This document shows positions 392 to 47,981 of a DNA stretch of 64,000 nucleotides, piece by piece. This stretch comes from a virus, in IMG/VR virus record IMGVR_UViG_3300047160_018755, positions 64,001 through 128,000 of that record; one strand, 5' to 3'. Both the position numbers and the translations under genes were made by a program. How positions within the stretch are numbered: the first letter of the stretch is position 1; every line of letters begins with the position of its first letter. A model generated the notes under the pieces. That model was not told where the DNA came from and did no database searches. It saw nothing but the letters and a program-made list of their open reading frames with translations.

Positions 392-3300
392 ATGTGGTAC
401 GACGAGAATGACGACGCGCATTTCGTGCCGGCCAGCACTCAGGACCTGATTCGTGAGCAGGCTTACTACGATGGGCACTTCTGCCCGGAGAAGGCGTGGC
501 TGCTCTCGGACTTCGACACCTGGGAGCGTAATCCCCACTACAAGGGCGAGCCCGTGCCGCACCCGGACGCGGACCTGGCCGACAACGAGGAGGCGCAGGC
601 CGAGGTGCCCAAGGTTGCAAACTGGGTGCCATTCTTCGAGGGCGAAGATGACCTCCCCTTCTGACGCGCTGTGTGAGGAGACCGGGCGCCCACACAACTA
701 CACCGCCGACCTGGAGTACGACGCGACGGGTCAGACCATCAACTGCGAGGACTGCGGCGAGCCGCAGCCGCAGGACGCCGGCAACTACGGTGACGCGACG
801 TTCCGCAAGCTGATGGACCTCGGCCTGCTGCTGCAAGACGGGGACCAAATGGTGGGCCTCAAGCTGTTCCTGGGCAGCATGGACCTGGAGACGCCAGCGC
901 TACGCAAACTTCGTGCCGAGATCGAGAAGTTCACCGCCCGCATCGAGGGCCTGACGCAGGCGGCCAAGGTCGCCACGGGAATGGAGTGACGCACGTGGAC
1001 ATCCGAGCGCAGCAATACGCCCGCCTGCTCGACCACGCCCACGCCGAGGCGCTGGCCCGGTCGCGTCTGTTCATCGGGTACCGGCGCCTCACCACAGTGG
1101 CCCTGGTTCGCATCAGGGACGCGCAGGACGAGTGTGAGCGCGACCGCTGCGCCCGTGTGGTCGGCTACCTCGCGCGGCGGCTTGCCCGCGAGCAGACGCG
1201 CCTCGACGAGGTGTTCTCTCACTTCCAGGATGGTGCGCAAGGATCTGCGCACCCTGCGTAACGAACTACGCAGAAAATCGCGCAGCGATCTACGCAGTCG
1301 GGGATCGAAACCGCACAGAATCAAGGCTTCGAGGTTGGCACGAAACGTGGATATCTCTGAGGCAGGAGGCAACGAAATGACGCGGACCAGGACAGACCGA
1401 TGGCACAACACGGGCGGCAACGGGCCGGCCGAGGCGGTGTGGTGCCGCAGCCGCAAGGGCCGCTCTGCGGTCGTGCAGGTGTACAGGTCCCACGACCTGC
1501 ACGCCGCCAAGACCTGCGTCCTGGAGCGCTGGGAGAACTTCAAGCAGACCGCCGTGGCAATCAGCGGTCTCTCGTTCAAGACCGCCAAGCGCCTCGGCGA
1601 CGAGTTCCTCGGCGTCAAGCCGCGCAAGAGCCGCGCGGGCCTCAAGAAGTTCAGCGTCGTCGGCTTCTATGTCGACAACAACCAGCCGCTCATCAGCTGG
1701 GAAACGTGCCTGACGCCGCAGGAGGCGGCGCAGAAGGCAAAGTACCGCCGCGATTCCGAGGTCAAGGTCGTGGAAGTTCTCCACGGTCACCGCAAGGGAA
1801 TTCTCACCAACGACGAGGTGCTGTGATGGCTACGGACTGGAAGAAGAGAGACGAGGAAGAGCGCAGCGAGCGCATCACCCTACACGACCTTGTGGGGCCG
1901 CTGGCCCAGCTACTGGGCGCCGGCTGGAGTGTCGAGGCGCCGCGCGAGGACGAGCCGAGCCTCCCGTCGTACTACACCCTGCACGGCCCGGACGGGGCCG
2001 AGCTTGGTCTGTCTGGCGGCACGTGGGGCAGCAAGGGCAAAATCACCATCACGGCGCACTTCAACGACCGCAAGGACGGCGTCACGTTCTGGTACCTGCC
2101 GTACAAGGTCGAGCGCCCGTCTATCTCTGTCACGGGCACTCGCGGCGCCCTCGTCGTCGCCAAGGAAATCGCCCGCCGCCTCCTGCCCGACTACATGCCT
2201 CTGCTCATCTCGTGCAACGAGGCGCGCGCCCGGTGGGAGACCCGCAAGCGCAACGGGCACGCCGTGGCCGTGAGCCTGGCCCACTACATCGGCGCGGCCG
2301 AGGCCAACATCGAGAGCGATGTGCGCAACAGCGACGGCAGCACGTACAAAATCAACGTCTACCGGTCGGAGGCCCTGGCCGGCTCCCACGTCGACGTCAA
2401 GGTGCGCGGCTCCGAGGACTCCGAGCAGAGCGTCCGCATCGACAACATCGACGTGCCGCCCCACGTGGCCGCCGAGCTTCTGGCGGTCCTGGTCCGCCAC
2501 CATCACGCCGTCAAAGAGGAGGACTAGATGCCGCTCATCAACCTGACCCCGTCCGAGGCCTGCTATCTGGCGGTCCTCGTGCGCGACCACGCCAACACCC
2601 CCGAGCGCCGGGCCATCTCTCCATCCGATGAGGCCGCCAACCGACAGCGTGACCTCGATCTGGCACTGGCGCACAAGCTCCTGGCCTCGGACGTGGCCTG
2701 CCGCCACTGCGCCGGGCTGCCCGGCTCCCCCTGCGAATACCACGAAAGGACCCGCTAACATGAGCGCAGCCATCGCCATCGATCTGTCCGAGGATGACAG
2801 CACGCCCATCCTGAGCGCCGAGACCCTCGCCTGGCTCGACGAGGAGGAGGAAACCGAGCTTCAGAAGCTCGCCCGCCTGGGGGCGCCCGTGGCCCTCATC
2901 TTCGCGCACCAGTGCGTCAGCAACGACGCCGGGTGGTGCACCGCCTGCCTCCGCTACCAGGCGGCCGGGGGTGCGCTGTGATTCGCTTCGGGCTGCACCT
3001 GTACCGCAATCTCTCCGACCTGGAGGGCGAGGGCCACAAGAGTCTCACGCCCGTTCGCCTTCAGGGCGAAACCACGAACGAGGAGTCCCTGCGCGCCATC
3101 CTCGACGGCGCTCTGGACGCCTACGGCACGAGCCTGAAGGACTTCGACCACCGCAGCGACGGGTGGGACCTCCGCCACCGCCAAGCGCGCTTCGCCAACT
3201 ACGTGGGCGCGCAGGAGGACGGCACCATCGACCCCGAGGGTACGTGGACCCTGGAGTTCGATCTGTTCGTGGCCGTCGTGGGCCACGACGGCACCCCCTA

Positions 3301-3895
3301 CCAGTGCCCCACCTTCGGCTGCCCCGAGGCGGACGACTGCGGTGTGGCCTGGGAGCCCGAGGACGAGGCGGCCGTCAAGGCCGGCCAGTTCGAGCCCAGC
3401 GAGTGTCTGGGCAAAGAGTGGACCGCCCGCTAACCCCAGCAAGGATCAGACCAAATGAAACTCTCCGACCTGACCGACAAGGCCGTCGTGCTCATCATCC
3501 AGCGCGACGTCAAGAACCCCAAGCCCGACCGGCGCAAGACCCGAGACTTCGCCTGCCTCGAAACCTGGAAGGCCGGCACCCGCCTGCTCTTCAAGAGGTC
3601 CCGAGCCCGCAACGAGGTGGGCCACGGCTACGTCGAGGCCAAGAGCCTCTACGGGTGGCTCACCGAGCGCGACCCCGGATTCGAGGCTCTCATCGATGCC
3701 TGCGAGAAGGCCCCCAGGACGCTCAGGAACGCGCTGTGGATCGCGGAGGAGGGCCGGGCCGTCACTCACCCCTCCGACGTCCTGGGCACGCTCCTGGTGC
3801 AGGGCAAGCTGTCCCTCGACGACATCGACGCCGCCGTCCTCGCCTACGAGGAGATGACCGAGGAAGAGCAAGACCACATCACCCACAAGCTGTAA
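392..3895 (+). other. Run of small co-oriented early hypothetical genes (392-664, 648-989, 986-1261, 1377-1826, 1826-2527, 2528-2758, 2760-2981, 2978-3433, 3455-3895)
   Basis: Abutting or overlapping stop-start junctions, GGAG-type RBSs, GC3-rich codons; no recognisable family. Confidence 0.65.
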
Positions 3896-7494: not shown

Positions 7495-9434
7495 ACCCTC
7501 TCTTCGAGAAGGGCGCCACCATGGTGCTCAAGGACAAGAAGGAGCCCAAGCGCAAGCTGCGCTATGCGTTGGGCATCGACGCCAACGGCGTCCCCCTCAA
7601 GAAGGGCGACCGCGTGAAGTGGACCGAGGCGTACACGCGCCGGCTCTACTTGCGCTCGCGCCAGCACCGTGCCGAGTTCATGGGCCAGGTGGGCGTGGTC
7701 GAGGATCTGTGCAAGTGGGGCGAGGAGCGCGGCCCCGAGGTCAACGTCCGCTACTTCCACAGCAACTTCTTCGGCAAGTCCAAGAACGGCCTGCGCTACT
7801 CGGCGCACCCGAGCGACCTGGTCAAGGTGACCCCATGACGGGGATCTCATGTGAGAGGGCTCGATTTTTCCTTGACACGGATCCCCGATTGTGAGATAAC
7901 AAAACCATGCCAACACAAAAGTTCCTTCGTGAATCCCAAGAGCGGACCTACCAGGCGATCGAGACCCTCGGCGAGGTCTCGGCCTACGACGTCATGGACG
8001 TGGTTGCAGCCGGCCTGGAGGGAAACAGGGCCTTCGCGATGCGCCAGCGGGTGAGCGGCGCGTGCTCCGAGCTTCACGCCGAAGGCCGGATCGTCAAGGT
8101 CGGACGCAAGGTCAACCCTTCGTCCGGGGAAACTGTCAACGTCTACCGCGCCAACCCCGAAGGCACGTCGTGCAGCTGCGGCAACTGCCCCGGCGACGGC
8201 GCCGATGGCGAAGGGGCCGGCTACAAGAGCAAGTACGAGGCGCTCTTGGAGAAGTATCAAGCTCTTCTGGCCGAGCGCGTACCGCTCTGCCGTGACTGCT
8301 GCACAATCCTGTGCCGCAGCTGCACGACGAACCGCAACCGAGCCACTTTGGTTGCGGTTGCCTGACCAAGACCAGTTCTTCGCCTAAATCTCTGGTACGG
8401 AGCGCGGCATGCTGCGCAGGGAGAGCCTGCGAGGGGTGTCTCGGGAGTGTCCTACCTGTTGAAACACCGGCTCCGTACCCTCTTTTCCACCACATGAAAG
8501 GATCCACATGACGACCAGCGAGATGTCCACCGACCTCGTCAAAGAGGTGACCGCCAAGCTTCACGAGCAGATCGACGCCGCCATCGAGGCGCGCAACTCC
8601 GCCTTCCAGGCCATGACGCCGGCCGAGAAGCGCAAGACCGTCGCCTACGACGTCCTGGAGCAGCTGTACCAGAAGCGCTTCGTGGCCCATTGCGGTCAGT
8701 GGCTCTCGTCCAACGACGTGACGGGCCTGCGCAACATCGACCGCTACGAGATCATCCCCAAGGAGGCGCTGGACGCCGATGCGCAGACCGCCATCGCCGG
8801 CAAGACCTGCGACGTGTGTGCTCTGGGCGCGCTCTTCGCCTGCACCATCGAGCGCCAGAACAGCATCGACATCGCGGGCGTGCGGCGGGCCGACTTCCGC
8901 GGCATCAGCGCCTACCTGACGGGCATCTTCGATCGCCGCACCCTCAACCTCATCGAAGCGTGCTTCGAGCGCCGCCGCGACTCCTGCGACTTCATGGACT
9001 ACGACAGCACGACGCGCCAGGAGGACGAGGTCCGCGTCAACACGTGGCTCAAGTACCACGGCAGCGAAAGCTCCTCCGAGCGCATGGTCTCGATCATGCG
9101 CAACATCGTCCGCCACGAGGGCGAGTTCGCGGTCTAGATGACGTGGGCTGAGCTACGAGATGCACTCCAGTGCCGGCACCTGAGCGGGCGACACTGGAGC
9201 AACGGCGAGTGGCCGCACATCTACGAGTTCGCCTGCAACGACTGCGCCTTCTGGTGGACCAACACGGTGGTGACGACGCGCCCGCCACAGTGGGACTGGG
9301 CGGACTGGCTCATCGATCACTGGCTCGATCCGTACCACGCCTTCGCCGACTGCATCAAGCGGGAGGACGACCTGCCCTGCAAGGAGTGTCGCGAGTACGC
9401 GATGGATGCCGTGGGTGCGCCACGCAGGAGTTGA
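7491..9434 (+). other. Hypothetical genes 7491-7838, 7907-8365 (possible winged-helix), 8508-9137, 9138-9434
   Basis: RBSs; TTGACA at 7872 before 7907; coding-like composition. Confidence 0.6.
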
Positions 9435-9488
9435 ACCTGCAACCTTTCCCTTAGGAGGGGACTGCTCGTCCAATCGAGCTAGAGGCGC
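9416..9488 (-). tRNA. tRNA-Arg(CCT)
   Basis: Cloverleaf, anticodon loop CTCCTAA, T-loop TTCAACT. Confidence 0.85.
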
Positions 9489-9494
9489 GTGGGT

Positions 9495-9567
9495 GCTCTT
9501 CGTAGGGATCGAACCTACATCCACAGGGCTTAGAAGGCCCGGGTCTTTCCAGTTGATGTAGAAGAGC
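9495..9567 (-). tRNA. tRNA-Arg(TCT)
   Basis: GCTCTTC/GAAGAGC acceptor, loop CTTCTAA; overlapped by the 3' end of the HNH gene. Confidence 0.8.
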
Positions 9568-9952
9568 GCTGATAGGTCCGCTCGCGGTGGCAATTGGCGC
9601 ACACGAGATCACATTTGGCAATTTCTGCTAGAATCTTGGACCGAGAGCCGTACTCACTCAACATGGCGACGCCGGCTACCTTCTTCTCTCCCGGACGATG
9701 ATCCCAGTCCATCACGTACGGAGGGTAGGCGACTCCACAGTCGGAGCACGGCTTCCCAGCTTTCAGGGACCGAGCGAAAGCAACGATCTCTTTTCTGTGA
9801 ACCTTCGCCTTCTGTAGGTATTTCCTCTTGTTCTTGCGGTAGTGCTCGTCCTTGTACGCCTTCTGGCACGATCTACAGAACGGCTGGAGCCCGTTCCTCT
9901 TCTTAGAAAACTCAGAATCTGGCTTCGGACCACACTTGGAGCAAATTGCCAT
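9530..9952 (-). CDS. HNH homing-type endonuclease
   Basis: CSKC..CRSC N-terminal Zn finger; CSDC...DWDH...CDLVCANCHRERT; lower GC; AATCTT 6 nt before ATG. Confidence 0.85.
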   Translation of the reverse strand: MAICSKCGPKPDSEFSKKRNGLQPFCRSCQKAYKDEHYRKNKRKYLQKAKVHRKEIVAFARSLKAGKPCSDCGVAYPPYVMDWDHRPGEKKVAGVAMLSEYGSRSKILAEIAKCDLVCANCHRERTYQRSSTSTGKTRAF

Positions 9953-9979
9953 GTTTTCAAGATTGTGATCCGATGAAAG

Positions 9980-10051
9980 TAGCCTGTGAGGGTGCCGCCC
10001 CCTCTTTGCCGCCTTGAAAGGGCGGAAGCCTAGCTGTTGACCGAACAGGCC
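9980..10051 (-). tRNA. tRNA-Glu(TTC), atypical T-loop
   Basis: CCGCC-CTTTCAA-GGCGG anticodon arm; T-loop GGCGGCA. Confidence 0.7.
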
Positions 10052-10115
10052 GTGAATCCTCACTAAACTGCCATATCTCACCGCAAAGTGAGGATTGATA
10101 ATTTAGTGAGGTATG

Positions 10116-10186
10116 TAGCCCTATGGGGACTCGAACCCCATCCATCTGGCTGAGAACCAGAGATCCTACCCATAAACGATAGGGCC
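10116..10186 (-). tRNA. tRNA-Glu(CTC)
   Basis: TCTGG-TTCTCAG-CCAGA; GGTTCGAGTCC. Confidence 0.85.
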
Positions 10187-10191
10187 ATGAG

Positions 10192-10264
10192 CATGTCGTC
10201 AAGGAATCGAACCTTGCTTTTCCGTTTTGGAGACGGAACCGTTCCCAGGACCGGTCAACGACAT
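10192..10264 (-). tRNA. tRNA-Trp(CCA)
   Basis: TCCGT-CTCCAAA-ACGGA; GGTTCGATTCC. Confidence 0.85.
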
Positions 10265-10280
10265 ATAGAATTCTGCACGG

Positions 10281-10354
10281 TAGGCTCGGTCGGGTACGAT
10301 CCGACAGCCGTTCGCTTAAAAGGCGACTGCTCTGTCCGTTTGAGCTACGGGCCT
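10281..10354 (-). tRNA. tRNA-Lys(TTT)
   Basis: Loop CTTTTAA; T-loop ATCGTAC. Confidence 0.8.
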
Positions 10355-10410
10355 GTGTGTCGGCTGTTTATGAGCCCACCGATCCGCCGACCGATCGATG
10401 AGAATCCCTG

Positions 10411-10482
10411 AGCGCGCTGCGAGGATCGAACTCGCTCCGTCTGGGTGGAAGCCAGGTATGCCGCCAAGTACACCTAGCGCGC
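10411..10482 (-). tRNA. tRNA-Gly(TCC)
   Basis: GCGCGCT/AGCGCGC acceptor, U73, loop CTTCCAC. Confidence 0.85.
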
Positions 10483-10499
10483 AGAAAGGAAATAAAGGA

Positions 10500-10657
10500 G
10501 CCGGTGTGCTACCGTTACACTAAGTCCGACAGAGGCAGCGTTTCACTCTAGACGTTTTGGCGACTTGATCAGGGCCGCTACTGGCTGTCCTAGCTGCATG
10601 TCCCTCCCACCGTATCAGGGCAAGAGGTTTGGTGTGGAGTCGAACCACTCCACCGGC
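10500..10657 (-). ncRNA. Permuted tRNA-like RNA A (T-arm first, D-arm last, about 100 nt structured insert)
   Basis: GCCGGTG..CACCGGC closing stem; GTGG-TTCGACT-CCAC at 5'; TA-GTGT-AACGGTA-GCAC at 3'. Confidence 0.6.
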
Positions 10658-10660
10658 TTT

Positions 10661-10734
10661 TGGAGCACCTACCGCGAGTCGGACGCGGGCTTCCTCGTTG
10701 GCAACGAGGTTTGCTACCGTAACAACTTAGGTGC
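10661..10734 (-). tRNA. tRNA-Gly(GCC)
   Basis: GCACCTA/TAGGTGC, loop TTGCCAA, encoded CCA. Confidence 0.85.
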
Positions 10735-10757
10735 GTATTTCGTAGTCTTTGGCAAAC

Positions 10758-10880
10758 TTACATTCGTAGATCCGCCCTGTGTCCGTCACTAAAGGGAAGC
10801 AGGACCTTCTTCCCGGCGCGCACCAGGGCTGCCAAGATCATCGCCTTGGATAAATCACCAACTCCTGTTGTATCGCGCAT
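10758..10880 (-). pseudogene. Truncated PD-(D/E)XK homing endonuclease relic
   Basis: MRDTTGVGDLSKAMILAALVRAGKKVLLPFSDGHRADL then stop; resembles the N-terminus of PDDEXK_5-type endonucleases. Confidence 0.6.
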
Positions 10881-10882
10881 TG

Positions 10883-10955
10883 TTGCGGAGGTCGGATTCG
10901 AACCGACGTATGGCTGGGTATGGGCCAGCTGAATGGGCCACTTTTCTACTCCGCA
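10883..10955 (-). tRNA. tRNA-Met(CAT)
   Basis: GCTGG-CCCATAC-CCAGC; GGTTCGAATCC; initiator/elongator/Ile2 identity not resolved. Confidence 0.8.
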
Positions 10956-10975
10956 GTGTATTTCTATCGAATCTG

Positions 10976-11050
10976 TAGGTCCGGTGGGGGATGATCCCAC
11001 AACCTTTCGCTTAAGAGGCGATTGCTCTGAACCAGTTGAGCTACGAACCT
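10976..11050 (-). tRNA. tRNA-Lys(CTT)
   Basis: Loop CTCTTAA; T-loop ATCATCC. Confidence 0.8.
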
Positions 11051-11107
11051 GTGGGGGTCTCTCCCTCAGTCAAGCCTGGATTTCGCGGCGGCTTTCCCTA
11101 CTTTGGC

Positions 11108-11184
11108 GCTGGCGACTTAAACCACTCGTCCACAGGCCCGATCTTTCGAACGAGCCCGGCGGGATTCGAACCCGCGTCTCCAGC
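11108..11184 (-). ncRNA. Permuted tRNA-like RNA B (YrlA-like)
   Basis: GCTGG-AGAC-GCGGG TTCGAAT CCCGC-CGGGCTC-GTTC GAAA GATC-GGGCCTG-TG-GAC GAGTGGTTTAA GTC-G-CCAGC. Confidence 0.8.
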
Positions 11185-11191
11185 AATTCCG

Positions 11192-11458
11192 TTACCTGCG
11201 CTTCTTGCTGTCGAGCTTGGTCGCGAACGACCTCTCGGCAGAGCGCTGAAGATCGAGAGCCTTGCTGTCCATCGTCGAGCCACGCTCGGTCACGACCCAG
11301 CCCCTGCTCCACTTGCCCTCGTCGTCCTCGGCACTGTCGATCAAGATCTCGACGTGCTTGCCGACCTTGGCGAAGCTTGTTGGAATGAAGGCGGTGTGAA
11401 TCTGCTTGCCGCCACCTTCGCACGGCCTTTCCATCCTGCATTGCGTGTACGATGCCAT
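11192..11458 (-). CDS. Hypothetical protein inside the tRNA cluster
   Basis: AAGGA RBS; 88 aa. Confidence 0.6.
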   Translation of the reverse strand: MASYTQCRMERPCEGGGKQIHTAFIPTSFAKVGKHVEILIDSAEDDEGKWSRGWVVTERGSTMDSKALDLQRSAERSFATKLDSKKRR

Positions 11459-11481
11459 CTGACTTCTCTCTTCCTTGTTTG

Positions 11482-11553
11482 TGGACCAGCAGGGAATCGA
11501 ACCCTGATCTCCGCAGTGCGAAAGCGGCGTCTTCCCATTGATACGACCAGCCC
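11482..11553 (-). tRNA. tRNA-Ala(CGC)
   Basis: G3:U70 pair, loop TTCGCAC. Confidence 0.85.
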
Positions 11554-11617
11554 AAAGTAATGGGTCGGTTACGACCGACTGGCACCTCGTGGATGCCATG
11601 TAGCCGACTGACCCTCG

Positions 11618-11689
11618 TGCGCCTCGCTGGGATCGAACCAACGGCCTCTCCCGTGTCATGGGATTGCTCTTCCGCTGAGCTAGAGGCGC
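11618..11689 (-). tRNA. tRNA-Val(GAC)
   Basis: Cloverleaf, loop ATGACAC. Confidence 0.85.
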
Positions 11690-11692
11690 AGG

Positions 11693-11766
11693 CTCCAGTG
11701 TGCTACCTTTACACTACCGCGCCCATAGTGGTGGGCTTGGGCGGACTTGAACCGCTACTCCTGGAG
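11693..11766 (-). ncRNA. Permuted tRNA-like RNA C
   Basis: CTCCAG-GAGTA-GCGG TTCAAGT CCGC-CCAAGCCC-ACCACTAT-GGGCGCGG-TA-GTGT AAAGGTA GCAC-A-CTGGAG. Confidence 0.75.
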
Positions 11767-11771
11767 TTTCG

Positions 11772-11843
11772 TGCGTCTTGATGGGATCGAACCACCGGCC
11801 TTTCCCGTGTGAAGGGACTGCTCTACCGCTGAGCTAAAGGCGC
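11772..11843 (-). tRNA. tRNA-Val(CAC)
   Basis: Cloverleaf, loop TTCACAC. Confidence 0.9.
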
Positions 11844-11910
11844 ATGTTTGGGAGTCTTCTTCACTCCCCACGTCTTGGACTATTTAATTTTCAGAGATCC
11901 GAACCCACTC

Positions 11911-11987
11911 TGGCTCCGGAGGACCGACTCGAACGGTCATCTACATCTGGTTAACAGCCAGGCGCTCTGCCATTGAGCTACCCCGGA
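11911..11987 (-). tRNA. tRNA-Asn(GTT)
   Basis: TCCGGGG/CTCCGGA, loop CTGTTAA, CCA. Confidence 0.9.
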
Positions 11988-12013
11988 AAACGCCTGGCCT
12001 GATCGGCTCAGGG

Positions 12014-12133
12014 TTACTTCAGGGTGGCTTCTACTTTGGCGCCGCCAGCCCACCCCATGCCGGCAGCGCACACGTTCGCCTCGGCCTTATTGGCCTCCGC
12101 GATCATGACGTTGACGTTGGTGTTGGTGAGCAT
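12014..12133 (-). CDS. Putative leader peptide of tRNA operon 1 (39 aa)
   Basis: MLTNTNVNVMIAEANKAEANVCAAGMGWAGGAKVEATLK; TAATCT motif and GAGG upstream; 26 nt before tRNA-Asn. Confidence 0.65.
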   Translation of the reverse strand: MLTNTNVNVMIAEANKAEANVCAAGMGWAGGAKVEATLK

Positions 12134-12265
12134 GACTGGAACCCTCAGTAGATTAGGACTCGAAAACCGATCCACTACACTTCTATCGAATCTCGACGGA
12201 GAAAGCAAGCGAATACGTACATCCCCGCATTGCTTTTTCTGGCGTAACCTGTAGGGTGACGCGCC

Positions 12266-32876: not shown

Positions 32877-33012
32877 CAGGTATCCCTCCTGACAACCAAG
32901 ATTAAGAGCGGAACAAAAAAGAAGGAAGGGTCAGGTCCCGCACCCTCTCCGTTTTCTGCGTTACCGGAGACTCCCGTGCAGTAAGGGATTGTGAGGTGAA
33001 GGACCTGATTTG

Positions 33013-33826: not shown

Positions 33827-34105
33827 CTAGAACTCATCGCCATACTTCTCGGGAATCTCTTCCAGAAGCTGCGCAAAGCCCTCCAACTCAGCCACCAGGC
33901 CCTCGTTCTCCCATTCCTGGCATCGCCCGCTGACGTTGATCGAGAGCTGCCGTTCCTCGCCCGTGTGCTTCTGGTGCAAGTACGTGTGAATGTTGCACGT
34001 GCCCCACTTCGAGCCGCGAGCGATGTTGGCGTGAATGCAGTTCCCGCAAGTCGGCTGTACGGTGTAGCCGATGTCCTTCAGGACCACAAGCTTGTTGGCG
34101 TCCAT
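33827..34105 (-). CDS. Small Cys-containing hypothetical protein
   Basis: CGNC...C...C. Confidence 0.6.
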   Translation of the reverse strand: MDANKLVVLKDIGYTVQPTCGNCIHANIARGSKWGTCNIHTYLHQKHTGEERQLSINVSGRCQEWENEGLVAELEGFAQLLEEIPEKYGDEF

Positions 34106-34220
34106 CAGACCGCTCGCTTCATCTCTTTCAACCTCTGCGCCGTGCGCAGGTCGAACTGATGCCCACGGAGCCCTCGCCGTCGAAGAAACCGGCTACGTAG
34201 CGAGGATCAACCCTTGACAC
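34105..34220 (-). pseudogene. Internally deleted LAGLIDADG endonuclease relic
   Basis: VSRVDPRYVAGFFDGEGSVGI starts at the rtcB stop; out-of-frame tail AQRLKEMKRAV* ends in a TGATG overlap with the next gene. Confidence 0.65.
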
Positions 34221-35463
34221 AGAGGACTTGCCTCAGCGTGTGGACGATCTCGACCAGGTCTTTCTGGTTCTCCATGACTTGGTCAATGTTCTTGTAGGCC
34301 GAGGGGATCTCGTCCAGGACTCCGGAGTCCTTACGGCAGCAGACACCCTTCGTCTGCTCGGCGAGATCCTCGACCGTGAAGGTCCTCTTTGCCTGCCCGC
34401 GAGACATCTTGCGCCCGGCCCCATGGGAAGCCGAGTTGAAGGAGTCGGGGTTCCCGAGCCCGCGGACGATGAACGACTTCGCTCCCATGCTGCCCGGGAT
34501 GATCCCCAGGCGGCCAGCCTCAGCGTTGATGGCCCCCTTGCGGGTGACCAGGACGTTCTCGCCGAAGTGAGTCTCCTCGGCGACGTAGTTGTGATGCGCA
34601 AGGATCGGCTTCTCGAACGTCACCTCCAGCGAGCCGCCCCAGAAGTCCGCGAACGTCCGCTTCAGGATGTCGAACATGACCATGCGGTTCAGCATGGCGT
34701 ACTCCTGCGCCCAGAACAGGTCGTGTCGATACGCCGTCATCTCCTTCGTTCCGGAGAGGAAGACCGCCATGTCCGGATCCGGGATGCGCTCGTTGTGGAT
34801 CAGGCCACGCGCGATGTCGATGTGGATCTCGGCCAGCTCCTTGCCGATGTTGCGCGAGCCCGAGTGCAGCATGAGCCACACGCGCGGCTCGTGCTTGTAC
34901 TGGTGCCACTCGCCGCAGTTGTCCTGACCGCAGTCGTAGATGCCGTTGTCCAGGCACACCTCGATGAAGTGGTTGCCGCCACCGAGCGTACCCATCTGCT
35001 TCTTCGCCTTCGCGAAGTCCACGCGCTCGCCCTGGTGCAGGTCCTTGAAGCGATCGAAGAGCTTCATGTGCTCGACGGCAGTCGCGTGGTCCGAGAAGTG
35101 GAAGACCGCCCGATCGTGGGCGTTGAAGCCCACCGGGATCGCAGCCTCGATGGCCGCACGCATCGGCTCCAGGTTGTCCGGGAGGTCCGAGGCGACGAGA
35201 TTCGTACGGATCGCGCCCATGCCACAACCGATGTCGACGCCCACCGCGGCCGGCGCGACTGCATTCTTCATGGCGATGACCGAGCCGACCGTACAACCTT
35301 TCCCAGCGTGGACGTCCGGCATGACGGCCACGTGGTGGTAGACCCACGGGAGCTTCGCGACGTTCGACAACTGGTCGAGCGCCATCGAGTCCACTTCGTG
35401 GATCGGTGCCCAAAGCTTGACCGGGACGAGCTGCCCGGCTTTGTTCATTTCCGAAAGAGACAT
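34207..35463 (-). CDS. rtcB: RtcB RNA ligase
   Basis: MPDVHAGKG, VDIGCGM, GTLGGGNHFIE, HSGSR, HHNY, SHGAGR. Confidence 0.95.
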   Translation of the reverse strand: MSLSEMNKAGQLVPVKLWAPIHEVDSMALDQLSNVAKLPWVYHHVAVMPDVHAGKGCTVGSVIAMKNAVAPAAVGVDIGCGMGAIRTNLVASDLPDNLEPMRAAIEAAIPVGFNAHDRAVFHFSDHATAVEHMKLFDRFKDLHQGERVDFAKAKKQMGTLGGGNHFIEVCLDNGIYDCGQDNCGEWHQYKHEPRVWLMLHSGSRNIGKELAEIHIDIARGLIHNERIPDPDMAVFLSGTKEMTAYRHDLFWAQEYAMLNRMVMFDILKRTFADFWGGSLEVTFEKPILAHHNYVAEETHFGENVLVTRKGAINAEAGRLGIIPGSMGAKSFIVRGLGNPDSFNSASHGAGRKMSRGQAKRTFTVEDLAEQTKGVCCRKDSGVLDEIPSAYKNIDQVMENQKDLVEIVHTLRQVLCVKG

Positions 35464-37189
35464 GATACTCCGAGACGGATGAAGTGGAACAGAAGGATCA
35501 CCGGCATCGCCGGCAGGAGACAGGTCTCCAGATGCGCGTCGAAGAACCACGCACCGATGTAGAGCCACGCGATGCAGAACACCACGTAGGCGAGGATGAT
35601 CAGAACCGCGAGCATCACGGCTCCTCGGGGAGCCACGTCACGCGGTACGTGGAGTTGAGCGTGTCGAACTCGAAGCCGTCGACGGTCTTGACGACCTCCT
35701 TAATGACGCTCGTGCGGGCGAGGTTGCCGTTGTCCTTGTACAGGCAGAAGCACCCCTCGACCCGAGGGTCGTAGTAGGTGTGCCCGAGCATGGACTTGTG
35801 ACGCTCCTCGACCGGGTGATTCGACTCGACGAGATCGAGCCGGCACCGCCGCCATTCACACTTGAGCTTCTCCATGAACGTACCTTACCTCACTTCCCGT
35901 CGATCGTCCAGGACTTTCGTTCGGCCCCCTTCTCGCCGTACTCCTCGGACTCGATCCAGACGTCCTTGGTGTGGTCGCCGTTCGGGTCCATCTTCCAGAA
36001 GCCCCACTTCTTGCCCCGATTCCAGCCCACGACCCAGGACAGCGTCGGGCCAATGAGCTTGACGATGTGGACGTGACCCTCCGGGTTGTGCAAGGTTGTG
36101 CCGACGCGCGCCACGTTGACACGGGGGTTGCCTGGCCTGCCGTAGCCGCCCTCGCGGGCGGGCACGCGCGGGTAGTAGACCTCCTCATCATAGCCGTTCA
36201 TGAGGATCGTGGTCGTGAAGGGCCCGGGGTGGTCATGCGGGTCGCGCCCCTCGTCGGGGAGCAGGATCAGGTGGAGGAACCGCGGCCGGTACCACTTCTG
36301 CTTCGGGGTCATAAACCAGCGCCGCAGGTAGAGCTTCCCCTCAGGCGTGAAGATGTCGAGGTGAGGCCAGAGCGCCGACATGAGGTGGACGAAGGTGGCC
36401 TTGTCGAAGAAGAACGCCACCAAGATGATCGGCGAGATGGCGACCGCGAAAAGCGCCTTGAACACCGACCAGATCGTGAACAAGTACTCCCAGCTGTAGA
36501 GCAGCGCGAGAACGACCAGGCCGCTGAACATCGCGAAGGACATTAGCTGATCAGCTCGTCCTTCGTCTTCCCAGACGACGGGGTGGTGGGAGCAGACGGC
36601 GCCGGGATGTCACCGCGACCCACCAGCGTCTGGTAGGCCGGCCCGATGTAGTTCTGGTAGACGCTGTTGATGGCGAGGACATCTTCGATCGTCGGCGACT
36701 GCTCGGCGCCACTGTTGTTGACGACCTCCTCCGCCATGTCGCAGGCGAACATCAGGTCCTCGAACAGCATCAGTCGGGCTTGCGTCTCGATGAGAGGGCC
36801 GTGCTTCCCGGGCTGGCCCTTGAGGTCGTTCAGGCGTTGCGTGAGCTGATCTTTCAGACTGCTCATAGTTTCCACTCTTTCGGCTTGTGTCCTGGGATCT
36901 TGAATTGCCAATGGTGAATCTTACACTGTTCCCCCGGCGGGATGCCAGGAAAAACGTACTCGCTCGTTCGGTGTCCGCGGATCCCGACCGCCTTCGAGGT
37001 CAGCTTGGACTCGCATTCGATCCAGAACCAAATCGACCTCCGGAACGGGTTGTGGACGGTGATGTGGCGCTCCCACTCGGGAGACGCATGTTGGGGTACG
37101 ACCAAGATCGAGATCTGGTCGGTGATGGCCGGCTGCGGGTGCTTCGCTGGGGCGAAGGCCAGCAACGTGGCAATCAGAAAGGACTTCAC
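35460..37189 (-). other. Hypothetical genes, including a TM plus cupin-like protein (35890-36543) and an exported protein (36863-37189)
   Basis: YLRRW...HDHP...HIV cupin-like His motifs; signal peptide MKSFLIATLLAFAPA. Confidence 0.55.
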
Positions 37190-40570: not shown

Positions 40571-40629
40571 GGCGATCCTCGTTTTCTTTCTATCGAATCT
40601 AGGAACCGAAAGCAAGAACTATCGAATCG

Positions 40630-40701
40630 TGCCCCCGCCGGGATTCGAACCCGGAGCTTCCTGGTTTGAGCAGGCTGTCTGTGCCGTTGAACTACGAGGG
40701 C
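40630..40701 (-). tRNA. tRNA-Leu(CAA), short variable loop
   Basis: Loop CTCAAAC, A73, 4-nt variable region. Confidence 0.75.
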
Positions 40702-40702
40702 T

Positions 40703-40779
40703 TGGTACCCGGAGCGGGATTCGAACCCGCAACCTCCGCGTTCTGAGCGCGTTGCCTCTGCCGATTGAGCTACCCGGGC
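40703..40779 (-). tRNA. tRNA-Leu(CAG), short variable loop
   Basis: Loop CTCAGAA, A73, CCA, 5-nt variable region. Confidence 0.8.
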
Positions 40780-44902: not shown

Positions 44903-45415
44903 TTACGTGATCGCGGGGAGGTCGGCCGCGGTGACGTTTTCGGAGTTCTGCGTGGACTCGTCGTCCATGCCGAGCGCGACGAAGGTGACGGTCAGCTCTT
45001 CGAGGTTGCGGGCCGAGATCGTCGTCGAGAAGCCGGTGCAGCGCACGTTCTTGAAGTGCGCGATCGAGTCCGGCAGACCGAGGGCCTGGCGCTGGCGGTC
45101 GTAGATGTCCAGCGTGAGGTACTCGGTCAGGAGGAGGTCCTGGAGCTTCGGCAGACCCGCTTCGACCCAAGGGCCGTGCTCGATGACTCGGAAGCCCGAG
45201 CACGTGATCGAGACGAGGTCCATCGACGTGTAGTCCACTTCCGCGGCGCCGAAACGACCCAGCACGTAGGCTGGCTGCGTCTCGTACGTCATGTTGTAGC
45301 TCACGTTGTTGAACAGACCCACGACGTGGCTGGTACCGTCATTCGGGTTGAAGACGTTCAGCTTCGCGCGGGCGCCCGACATCACTTTCGGGGCAGTTTG
45401 CTTGGTGGCGGCCAT
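44903..45415 (-). CDS. Contractile tail tube protein
   Basis: 170 aa directly after the sheath; VMSGARAKL...VLGRFGAAEVDYT. Confidence 0.75.
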   Translation of the reverse strand: MAATKQTAPKVMSGARAKLNVFNPNDGTSHVVGLFNNVSYNMTYETQPAYVLGRFGAAEVDYTSMDLVSITCSGFRVIEHGPWVEAGLPKLQDLLLTEYLTLDIYDRQRQALGLPDSIAHFKNVRCTGFSTTISARNLEELTVTFVALGMDDESTQNSENVTAADLPAIT

Positions 45416-45449: not shown

Positions 45450-47981
45450 TTACGAGGACTGCTGGACCTGCGTGATGCTGAACGTGATCGGGATGAAGTA
45501 CAGCGCGGTCGCCGCCTTCACCTCGGCGCTCACCACCATGGCGGGGCCGGAGATCTTGATGACCGGGTTCTTGTAACCCTTCGGCGCGTCGTCGCTGAAC
45601 GCGATGAGCTTCACGCGGCGGAGGTTGTCCATGATGGCGTCGAGGACCGAGAGGGCCTGCGCCACCGTGACGTCCGCGAGGGACTGACCGACGAACGCCT
45701 GCTCCATGATCTGCGCCGTGGTGAGCGAGATGATGTCCGCGTCGTACACAGCCTGGATGCTGTTGTAGACGAAGTTGTTGTCGCGACCGTACGTCGTCTG
45801 GTCGGAGACGTAGCGGAAGCCACCCGTCGGCGGGCGCGCGATCGTGAGGAGACCCGCCTCCAGCGCCAGCTCGACGGCGTCGTCGTCCTGGTCGTTGAAG
45901 TCCCCGGCCGCCTGGAGAGCGCCCGAGATGTTGATCCCCTTGTTGAAGATCGCCTTGTAGAAGCCCGCGGCCTGCATGCCCGCGGCCTTGACCGCGTTCA
46001 TCCAGGGCTGGAACTGCGCGAGCGTTCCGACCGAGTTGTTGTCGCGCACGTCTTGGAACGAGAGCGAGCAGCGGAACGAGGCCAGCTCGCCGGCCGCTTC
46101 CTTCGCGTTCGCGATCGTGTCGCGGAGCGAGAGGAACGCCTGGCGGTTGCGGCGCTTCTTCAGCGTCGACATCTGGAGGACGTGCGAGCGGGTGTTCGCG
46201 TGCACGGCCGCGATGGTGTACGTCGACGACGGATCGGTCAGACCATCCGCGATGTCGGCGCTCGCGTCACGCGAGAACAGCGGCACGACGAAGTTGCCAC
46301 GAACCATCTTGAGCGCGTCGAGAGCTTGCTGGATCAGCGCGTCCGTGGTCGCACCCTTGGCGCCGCCCGAGAGGAACGAGACGCCCACCGTCGGAGCCGG
46401 GAGGCCCTTGATGTCCGCCTTGTTCAGCTGCGTGAGGAAGCCGTTGGCCGCGAGGGTCGTGAAGAACTTGTACGCGTCCTGCTTGATGCGGCCGGGGGCG
46501 ACGCTGGCGAACGTCGAGCAGATGCCGTACGTGCCCTGGTCGAGGCTCGTCGACGGCTGCGATCCGAGGACTGCCGTGCCCGGGGCGCACGTGAAGCCGG
46601 TGAGCGAGTCGAAGTACGCCGCGAGGTCCGCGATCGTCGGGTAGTCCGCGAGGACCGCCGAGAACGTGCCCGCGTTCGCACCACCGACCGCCGTGACCGT
46701 GAGGGTCACGCCGTCGATCGTCGCCGTGGCCGTCGTGCCCTCGTAGCCGATCTCCAGGGCGATGGCGCCGCCCGCGAAGATGTCGTTGACGATGTTGTCG
46801 ACCTGGCGCGACTCCGTCAGGTCCGCGACGTACTCCGTCGCCGACGTGATGAGGTTGCCGTTCGTCGAGTTGGTGATCCAGTTCACCTTCGTCGGAACGC
46901 CGTTCACAAGCTTCCAGCAGATGAAGTTGAGCAGGCCCGTGTGGCTCGACAGCTCGTCGATCTGGAGGCTCTTGCCGGTACCCGGGACGGGGTTGGTGCT
47001 CGCGAGGCTCACCGTGATGGCGCTGAACGTCTGGACGTCCGCCGTGCCAACGATGGCCGTCGCGCCCTTGGACGTCGGCGTGGTCAGCTGGTTCGGCGTG
47101 CCCGCGACGTCGAGGAGCTTCGTCGCGTAGATGGTCTTGCCCGCGCCGCCCGTGCCCGTCACGATGTACGAGCCGGCCGCAGCCGCGTTCGACGTCGCCA
47201 TCGCCGACGTGGTCGGGATGTAGAGCGTGTCACCCGCGACCGGGAGGTGGTCGAAGACCACCGAACGATCGATCTGCACGTTGTTGCCCGTGAGGACCGT
47301 GATCGCGAGCGTGCCCGTGGTTCCCGTCAGCGGGGACTCCGCCGCACCGCCCGTCGTGGTGATGCCCGCGATGCCCGCGAGCGTCGTGATCCACGTGGTG
47401 GGAGGGTCGAGGGCCGCCATGTTGGCCGCGTGCGAAGCGCCGCCGTTGAGGCGGAGGTCGACGTCGGTCGCCGCGATGGGGAGCATGAGCGCGAACGCGC
47501 CCGTGGTCGGAACAGCCTCGGACGTCTTCGCCGTGACCTGGAACGAGATCAGGTTGCCGAGCTTGCCGTAGGACTTGTCCTGGAGCGCGCCGACGCCCGG
47601 GGCGTAGCCCGTGCCGTACTCGGAGCTGTCCCAGTGGTAGAGGTGCGCCGTCGCCTTGGTCGACGGGTTGGTCTTCACGAGGATGAAGCCCGCGGGCGCG
47701 CCCTGGATCTGGGGATCGTTGGCGGGCACAGCGCCGCCGTTGAACGCGTCGACCAGGCGGCCGGACACGTACTTCGCCTTGACGTCACCGATCTGGCCGG
47801 GACCGAAGAAGTTGGACGCGATGTCCGTCTCCTGCGTGAAGTCCGGCCCCTGCTCCGCCTCGCCGACGAGCATGATCACGCCCGTGGTCGCGAGACCCGA
47901 GTTTTGCTGGACGACGTTGTAGCGAGCGTAGCCGCCCGGGATAGTCAGGACGCCAGCGTCGGTGGGGTAATTCTGAGCCAT
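45450..47981 (-). CDS. Tail sheath protein
   Basis: IPGGYAR...LVGEAEQGP N-terminus; FLSGGAKG; VSDQTTY...YNSIQ C-terminus. Confidence 0.88.
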   Translation of the reverse strand: MAQNYPTDAGVLTIPGGYARYNVVQQNSGLATTGVIMLVGEAEQGPDFTQETDIASNFFGPGQIGDVKAKYVSGRLVDAFNGGAVPANDPQIQGAPAGFILVKTNPSTKATAHLYHWDSSEYGTGYAPGVGALQDKSYGKLGNLISFQVTAKTSEAVPTTGAFALMLPIAATDVDLRLNGGASHAANMAALDPPTTWITTLAGIAGITTTGGAAESPLTGTTGTLAITVLTGNNVQIDRSVVFDHLPVAGDTLYIPTTSAMATSNAAAAGSYIVTGTGGAGKTIYATKLLDVAGTPNQLTTPTSKGATAIVGTADVQTFSAITVSLASTNPVPGTGKSLQIDELSSHTGLLNFICWKLVNGVPTKVNWITNSTNGNLITSATEYVADLTESRQVDNIVNDIFAGGAIALEIGYEGTTATATIDGVTLTVTAVGGANAGTFSAVLADYPTIADLAAYFDSLTGFTCAPGTAVLGSQPSTSLDQGTYGICSTFASVAPGRIKQDAYKFFTTLAANGFLTQLNKADIKGLPAPTVGVSFLSGGAKGATTDALIQQALDALKMVRGNFVVPLFSRDASADIADGLTDPSSTYTIAAVHANTRSHVLQMSTLKKRRNRQAFLSLRDTIANAKEAAGELASFRCSLSFQDVRDNNSVGTLAQFQPWMNAVKAAGMQAAGFYKAIFNKGINISGALQAAGDFNDQDDDAVELALEAGLLTIARPPTGGFRYVSDQTTYGRDNNFVYNSIQAVYDADIISLTTAQIMEQAFVGQSLADVTVAQALSVLDAIMDNLRRVKLIAFSDDAPKGYKNPVIKISGPAMVVSAEVKAATALYFIPITFSITQVQQSS

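Follow-up and report, generated by a model that had tools for sequence, protein, structure and literature searches.

The locus considered here raises the question of what a tRNA-like RNA that has no anticodon loop, and whose two halves stand in reversed order, is doing between the tRNA genes of a phage. The phage (G000) is an IMG/VR genome of 182,279 bp with direct terminal repeats and a completeness rating of 100%, its source label is soil, and the window, that is the whole stretch of 64,000 nucleotides that was analysed, is bases 64001-128000 of that genome. There are 29 tRNA genes in the window, of 31 over the whole genome, and one standard one-piece tmRNA, and every one of those in the window is on the minus strand. 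The tail sheath (45453-47981) is 41-47% identical to its counterpart in Myxococcus phage Mx1, and a 45-kb fragment rated 28% complete, G001 (IMGVR_UViG_3300046517_002587), is closer to G000 than Mx1 is. Two of the tRNA genes in the window, tRNA-Leu(caa) of 73 nt and tRNA-Leu(cag) of 77 nt (40629-40779, minus strand), have short variable arms and a class-I shape; the counterpart of tRNA-Leu(cag) in G001 has a normal long variable arm.

Anatomy and fold of the module

The module is 77 nt long, and its parts are given below in the order in which they would be transcribed.

11108-11184, minus strand: whole permuted, anticodon-less tRNA-like module, 77 nt (sequence, fold, and match to the covariance models R1 and R2 described below)
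11180-11184, minus strand: 3' strand of the 5-bp "anticodon" stem, first in the transcript, perfectly paired with 11108-11112
11176-11179, minus strand: variable loop of 4 nt, with C48 (Levitt partner of G15) last (sequence)
11159-11175, minus strand: T-arm, with a 5-bp stem and a 7-nt consensus T-loop (sequence)
11152-11158, minus strand: 3' strand of the acceptor, then G73; 7 of 7 pairs with 11133-11139, two of them G-U
11140-11151, minus strand: linker of 12 nt that seals the acceptor; G-C, U-U mismatch, U-A, C-G and a GAAA tetraloop (fold)
11133-11139, minus strand: 5' strand of the acceptor, G1 to G7 (sequence and fold)
11113-11132, minus strand: U8, G9, D-arm of class-II type, and G26 (sequence)
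11108-11112, minus strand: 5' strand of the "anticodon" stem, last in the transcript (sequence and fold)

The preliminary description of this DNA had read the segment as a permuted, anticodon-less tRNA-like arrangement whose fully paired acceptor is sealed by a GAAA-capped extension, and both statements hold, as the parts are read on the minus strand in the order claimed, the minimum free energy (MFE) fold agrees, all seven acceptor pairs are formed, and the linker makes a helix with a GAAA tetraloop. Standard pairs are found at 20 of 20 positions, the five pairs of the "anticodon" stem being Watson-Crick, and the D-arm proper (11130-11114) has a 3-bp stem and an 11-nt loop that contains GG. 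The nucleotides for the tertiary contacts of a tRNA are present (U8-A14, G15-C48, G18/G19 with the T-loop, G53-C61 and G26-A44) and because they are in place the module should fold as an L-shape. The permuted cloverleaf is the MFE structure of the 77-mer, at -37.9 kcal/mol and 63% of the ensemble in RNAfold, and its z-score of -3.36 corresponds to a fold that was equalled by 1 of 200 shuffles. When 50-60 nt of flank were included on each side the fold was no better than that of shuffles (z -0.14), which indicates that the fold is a property of the module rather than of the surrounding sequence. The partly paired linker with its GNRA cap looks like a selected sequence rather than a random spacer. 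The D-arm is of the class-II, tRNA-Ser type, and the same pattern retrieved only tRNA-Ser-type genes from viral contigs; since the variable loop has only 4 bases, a length that is equal in the G000, G001 and Mx1 modules, mere rearrangement of a serine tRNA does not account for the module.

The pairing in the module exceeds chance. Its 3' half and 5' half form 12 of 12 pairs, and this was matched by 4 of 14,028 ordered combinations of two unrelated tRNAs of this phage group and by none of 126 ordinary tRNA-tRNA junctions, a null set from scans of viral contigs in which the pattern was a T-arm with a Ser-type or Gln-type D-arm after it. These scans found only ordinary tRNA-tRNA junctions and no new members. 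ARAGORN did not call the module as a tRNA, and the Rfam tRNA model (RF00005), whose threshold is 29, scored it at 18.3 bits in an alignment that drops the anticodon arm. No parent tRNA with the stems of the module was found in G000, G001, Mx1 or relatives. A tRNA at L074:2985-3060 has an anticodon stem, variable loop and T-arm near-identical to the corresponding parts of the G000 element, and ARAGORN gives it an 8-nt anticodon loop with the four-base anticodon tgaa; it was rejected as a parent gene as the similarity is limited to the anticodon stem and T-arm and does not extend to the 5' half. A two-piece tmRNA was also considered, in which, as in the module, the T-arm and 3' acceptor strand precede the 5' acceptor strand. 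The module, however, has no G3-U70, A73, CCA, tag reading frame or pseudoknots, and the phage tmRNA is in one piece; the Rfam tmRNA_permuted model (RF04321) gave 10.5 bits on the T-arm alone, and this candidate was rejected as G3 pairs with C70 and just 57 nt separate the module from the next tRNA.

The place of the module in tRNA operon 1

The module is in sense orientation within tRNA operon 1, which covers about 9400-12200 on the minus strand, and the last part of an 88-codon ORF forms the 5' flank of the module. The features around it are as follows.

11481-11553, minus strand: tRNA-Ala(cgc), upstream in the same operon (tRNA calls)
11192-11458, minus strand: upstream conserved ORF of 88 aa, with its stop codon 7 nt before the module
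11051-11107, minus strand: spacer of 57 nt to tRNA-Lys(ctt), kept in L073 directly after the ORF, without the module
10975-11050, minus strand: tRNA-Lys(ctt), downstream in the same operon (tRNA calls)
Window 11192-11458 (minus strand), L073:935-1186, L074:2365-2628, L075:434-676 and L076:667-906: ORF family of 80-88 aa in tRNA arrays
Window 11051-11095 (minus strand), L073:790-835 and 1195-1246, and L074:2855-2895: spacer motif

Six homologues of the ORF, 62-82% identical, were found in a large protein database, all in phage tRNA arrays and in different slots, as if the ORF moves within such arrays. Used as a probe it had no relative in the viral contigs, and Pfam, PHROGs, the ESM Atlas and Foldseek against the PDB gave no usable match; its AlphaFold model (pLDDT 73) has a four-stranded sheet, a C-terminal helix and a basic tail. 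In L073 the order is the same as in G000, namely an Ala-like tRNA, the ORF and tRNA-Lys(ctt), and the distance from the stop codon to tRNA-Lys(ctt) is 60 nt compared to 141 nt in G000. The spacer blocks on either side of the G000 module are recognisably the same as the L073 spacer, and the module therefore represents an indel of about 80 nt whose boundaries coincide with those of the closing stem. At the ORF slot the module is present in G000 only and absent in L073, L074, L075 and L076, the four loci to which this comparison extends (two homologue contigs, including the closest, P0002, which is 82% identical, were left out). Since it is found in one genome at this site, there is no conservation among orthologous loci and no covariation within the family. 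Elsewhere in L073, a match of 28.8 bits that resembles a permuted module lies between two tRNA-Val genes (L073:459-556) and has a 39-nt hairpin insertion at the position of the acceptor loop and an imperfect D-stem.

The spacer carries a motif made of a GAAAGCC block, then GGCTTGAC, then GGAGAGAC, which several related phages have ahead of tRNA genes; the window contains it once, where none is expected, and it has no sigma-70 match. A promoter and terminator scan around the element gave nothing beyond chance. An HNH endonuclease gene (9533-10081, minus strand) lies in the same operon between tRNA-Glu and two tRNA-Arg genes, the Mx1 tRNA arrays likewise contain HNH genes, and it is possible that such genes drive the reshuffling of the arrays among relatives. 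No match to the locus was obtained in the phage collection by megablast and blastn, nor was the exact 22-mer of T-arm plus acceptor found in viral contigs. The contigs of four soil DNA runs gave only short identical or unrelated tRNA pieces against the locus, with no variants within the element. Among the sequencing runs listed as containing the locus there is none of RNA.

Kinship with YrlA and the absence of a Ro60 handle

The preliminary description had likened the architecture of the module to that of YrlA-type Y RNAs and had suggested an Infernal search with the Rfam YrlA model (RF02553). This search returned 15.2 bits (E 3.2), below the gathering score of 69, over model positions 28-81 of 114, and the alignment covers exactly the part of the module made of T-arm, closed acceptor and D-arm. 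The likeness of the YrlA module to a circularly permuted tRNA whose acceptor stem is closed has been described before (Wang et al. 2018, 10.1101/312249). Two further covariance models were built, R1 from the G000 element alone and R2 from the G000 and G001 elements, and the sole match of either in the whole G000 phage was the module itself. The related elements discussed below, and the RNA ligase gene of the window, are these.

G001 33945-34018 (L007:13945-14018), plus strand: handle-less permuted module, directly after the CCA end of the tmRNA
OR576727.2 45169-45297 (L018:3170-3298), plus strand: YrlA-type Y RNA of Mx1, unannotated; full-length Rfam YrlA match with docking motif
L289:189-261 (IMGVR_UViG_3300044695_004155, 8 kb), minus strand: permuted module with unpaired flanks, upstream of tRNA-Phe and tRNA-Met
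L285:9598-9666 and 9724-9790: two tandem permuted modules in the complete 424,529-bp phage IMGVR_UViG_3300017565_000001
Window 34210-35568, minus strand: RtcB RNA ligase, context only, its link to the module not being established

Over 150 kb of related DNA R1 gave one other full-length match, of 26.4 bits, which is the G001 module, about 1.5 kb downstream of rtcB in the gene order rtcB, tmRNA, module. In it 20 of 20 pairs are standard and 12 differ from G000 on both sides in a compensatory manner, including 3 of the 5 pairs of the "anticodon" stem, this covariation being that of two sequences that are possibly not orthologous (two or three when others are counted). Its D-arm resembles that of the Mx1 YrlA. 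When R2 was run on Mx1 it gave 40.9 bits at 45199-45265, an unannotated stretch between tRNA genes, and there the Rfam YrlA model matched at full length with 32 bits (E 4.7e-5). The gene of the Mx1 TROVE/Ro60 protein WNM70118 lies 11.6 kb downstream of this RNA, and the RNA itself lies between two tRNA-like genes that are absent from the annotation (L018:3097-3166 and 3300-3373).

From the relatives of the Mx1 Ro60, 80 bacterial loci were fetched, and R2 gave 85 hits that cover most of these loci, nearly all on the same strand as the gene and just 3' of it. The Rfam YrlA threshold was reached at 5 of 20 bacterial Ro60 loci, where the Ro60-side RNAs scored 71-90 bits. R2 also gives ordinary tRNA-tRNA junctions scores of up to 31 bits, so that its E-values are too optimistic in tRNA-rich DNA, and a hit was accepted only with intact stems and no overlapping tRNA. 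The T-stem type of the G000 module is the second commonest among 83 Ro60-side YrlA modules (18 of 83), and it does not belong to the eight most frequent types (at most 3 of 97) among the phage tRNAs of the group. An acceptor of 7 bp and a loop of about 11 nt are common to the G000 module and the Ro60-side modules. Judged from its sequence, the architecture of the module is that of the YrlA effector module. Thus the architecture named in the preliminary description stands, as the Rfam alignment falls on the tRNA-like part and R2 finds the Ro60-side modules, and membership of the YrlA family is not supported, given the score and the absence of a handle.

The handle is the part of YrlA that docks on Ro60 and its motif was described by Chen et al. 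2014 (PMC4201824). This motif, GNCGAA(N)G, is absent within 60 nt on either side of the G000 module, and the duplex of the G000 flanks, at -14.9 kcal/mol (z +1.0), is no better than that of shuffles. The flanks of 18 Ro60-side modules have -19 to -38 kcal/mol (z -1 to -5.9), those of Mx1 have a z-score of -4.3, and the strict docking motif was found in 24 of the 40 top Ro60-side hits, with a near variant in most others. We consider it well supported that the element is a YrlA-type tRNA mimic without a Ro60 handle.

The gene for Ro60 is missing as well. That no Ro60 gene is visible in the window and that rtcB lies 23 kb away had been noted before, and we found the same, the latter gene being the RtcB listed above. 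The search of the rest of the genome for a TROVE/Ro60 gene, also suggested earlier, found none in the complete 182-kb genome by Pfam TROVE (PF05731), by tblastn with the Mx1 TROVE protein, or by a clade-specific Ro60 HMM, which scores Mx1 at 741 bits; in the 28%-complete G001 fragment, tblastn with the Mx1 protein and the clade HMM found none. The search was repeated with tblastn and the clade HMM because of the weakness of PF05731 on the Mx1 Ro60 clade. PF05731 scores Mx1 at 21.6 bits, below its cut-off (L009:2574-4223), and gave no match in G008, the genome of locus L223, despite a 49%-identical homologue there, and family-based statements that Ro60 is missing are unreliable for this clade. 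Of 201 genomes sampled from the phylum to which a Myxococcales MAG belongs, the presumed host phylum, 3 were found to have the clade, and this makes a host-supplied Ro60 unlikely. Taken with the absent docking helix and the unpaired flanks, the lack of Ro60 in the complete genome speaks against the suggestion in the preliminary description that the RNA may tether Ro60. A decoy for tRNA-targeting nucleases or toxins, which that description had suggested as well, is a possible role.

The module thus resembles YrlA in its permuted order of T-arm, loop-closed acceptor and D-arm, in the position of both chain ends at the anticodon stem, in having a common YrlA T-stem and the 7-bp acceptor and loop of about 11 nt of the M. 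smegmatis YrlA, and in its occurrence in a phage and in a tRNA array, of which the Mx1 YrlA is an example. It differs from YrlA in having no Ro60-binding helix, GNCGAA motif or pairing flanks, in the absence of Ro60 from its genome, in its D-arm of tRNA-Ser type, and in the size of the RNA, which would be about 77 nt compared to about 115-130 for YrlA. YrlA is a ligand of Ro60, and TruB and DusA modify its T- and D-loop.

Permuted modules are also found in other phages. A scan of viral contigs for a T-arm with a closed acceptor gave at least about twenty permuted modules other than tRNA junctions, and among the matches listed most have strongly pairing flanks; both of the two contigs with such flanks that were examined encode TROVE. 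The module in L289, with its unpaired flanks, is a possible second handle-less case. The tandem modules in the L285 jumbo phage were found by R2 cmsearch with 38.6 and 29.5 bits, each within an outer stem and with the loop motif UUACAGCAA common to both; this phage has RtcB and TROVE was not detected in its complete genome, and the outer stem and loop may be another kind of handle for another partner. In the window itself, between the tmRNA and the gene that follows it, there is a stem-closed module (32930-33009, minus strand; -35 kcal/mol, z -4.1) at the site of the G001 module; the two have short stretches in common, the T-arm has been lost, and the window segment is probably a degenerate homologue of the G001 module. 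Such modules therefore seem, on comparison of the sequences, to be gained, moved and degraded within the Mx1/G000/G001 group. In this group Mx1 has Ro60 and YrlA without RtcB, and G000 and G001 have RtcB (71% identical) and handle-less modules, with Ro60 not found; this pattern is suggestive and comes from three genomes only.

Possible origins and functions of the module

A reading in which the module no longer does anything is the main rival to a functional one, and it is a serious possibility even though we lean against it. The module would then be a non-functional remnant, either a YrlA that lost its handle after the loss of Ro60 or a by-product of tRNA rearrangement, that is a tandem duplication with its outer halves deleted, that has not yet decayed. 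The module is in G000 only and the same slot in L073 is empty; the G000 structure at the site of the G001 module is no longer tRNA-like, so that such modules do decay; tandem identical tRNAs, which are found in the phage arrays L319, L278 and L327, are raw material for permuted junctions; and the arrays are reshuffled and contain an HNH endonuclease. All of this speaks for a remnant; against it speak 20 intact pairs of 20 and every tertiary-contact nucleotide in place, a linker that makes a GNRA-capped extension, a discrete unit of 77 nt bounded exactly by its stem ends, and the absence of a parent tRNA having these stems from G000, G001, Mx1 and relatives. The two G-U pairs in the acceptor also fit a pairing that is maintained.

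That the module begins 7 nt after the ORF stop codon, within a tRNA operon, could mean that it serves the operon transcript, either by recruiting RNase P or tRNA-processing enzymes or as a nuclease-resistant 3' end for the ORF mRNA. [quoted passage not shown] In four relatives, however, an ordinary tRNA, which is already an RNase P site, follows the ORF at 9-60 nt. Pairing of base 73 with the base before G1 is expected to hinder RNase P cleavage, and in the module G73 is paired in this way, and we consider such a processing or stability element unlikely. A true Y RNA that uses a Ro60 supplied by the host is very unlikely. The YrlA-type module itself and the complete pair of Ro60 and YrlA in the relative Mx1 speak for it, but the RNA has neither a docking motif nor paired flanks, its Rfam score is 15 bits against a threshold of 69, and the Ro60 clade is as rare as described above in the phylum presumed to contain the host (3 of 201 genomes).

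Permuted tRNA genes of Cyanidioschyzon merolae and Thermofilum pendens have the 3' half upstream of the 5' half with a linker at the acceptor end, their anticodon loop is split between the termini, and they mature via a circular intermediate by splicing endonuclease and ligase. The G000 module is like them in that the 3' half comes first, a linker connects the acceptor ends and each half is fully complementary to the other, whereas it encodes no anticodon loop; to our knowledge, bacteria lack the tRNA splicing endonuclease of this maturation. This likeness raises the question whether the module could be a permuted gene for a decoding tRNA, Ser-like in its class-II D-arm and G73, that is matured by end joining, for example by the phage RtcB, with the acceptor opened by RNase P and the 3' end trimmed. 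Its order of 3' half, linker and 5' half is that of the Cyanidioschyzon and Thermofilum genes, the phage has RtcB, and ARAGORN finds no tRNA in G000 for the UCN serine codons. We nevertheless find this hardly credible. No register of the flanking bases builds a 7-nt anticodon loop with U33 and purine 37, the flanks are ancestral spacer that is also in L073, and no flanking ribozyme or bulge-helix-bulge motif was found in an Rfam scan. A GGA serine anticodon is readable 5' of the element, and an anticodon loop from the flanks was rejected as the same bases are contiguous spacer in L073. Bacterial SerRS needs a long variable arm, and the module has none.

Our preferred explanation is that the module is a Ro60-independent, stand-alone YrlA-type tRNA mimic that is made from the tRNA operon transcript and acts as a tRNA-shaped ligand or decoy, and for this identity and this function taken jointly our confidence is evenly balanced. 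The RNA would be a circularly permuted tRNA body with a hairpin-sealed acceptor and with its 5' and 3' ends at the position of the anticodon loop. As the module is sense-oriented in tRNA operon 1, it is most likely co-transcribed with the tRNAs of that operon and then released by the nucleases that excise them. It would then work without Ro60, as a ligand or decoy for a protein that recognises the elbow or body of tRNA. Candidate partners are the RNA repair and translation-rescue set of the phage (RtcB, tmRNA and the tRNAs) or, alternatively, a tRNA-targeting defence factor of the host. Against this explanation is the D-arm, which is like that of Ser-tRNA and is not the conserved YrlA D-arm, and no conserved partner gene that travels with the module was found.

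A wider proposal, tentative and rather doubtful at present, is that handle-less YrlA-type modules are a functional class of phage RNAs that do without Ro60 and serve RNA repair or the soaking up of host factors. A sealed acceptor together with open ends at the anticodon stem would give the RNA the shape of a tRNA that has been cut within the anticodon loop. A shape of this kind could serve RtcB and tmRNA as a ligand, regulator or ligation substrate, or could sequester factors with which the host senses damaged tRNAs or attacks them. The succession of rtcB, tmRNA and module in G001 and the distribution of Ro60 and RtcB among Mx1, G000 and G001 are compatible with such a class. A comparative genomics study of 2016 by Burroughs and Aravind is said to have proposed Ro60-independent tRNA-like RNAs with other protein partners; the G000 module is like these in being a Y-like module without Ro60 in the context of RNA repair or conflict and of phage tRNA clusters, whereas theirs are larger or have a conserved neighbour protein, and none accompanies the G000 module.

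Independent of which explanation is right, Mx1 gains an unannotated YrlA gene from this work and Pfam TROVE is seen to be weak on the Ro60 clade to which the Mx1 protein belongs. If the module is a decaying remnant, it documents the gain, movement and loss of Y RNA and tRNA modules in phage tRNA arrays. For the tRNA-shaped half of bacterial Y RNAs no binding protein has yet been named (Wang et al. 2018, 10.1101/312249). If the module is functional, a virus that lacks Ro60 would offer this half by itself as a clean bait for the partner protein of Y RNAs, and the module would have its own role, perhaps in the conflict of phages with host defences that target tRNA.
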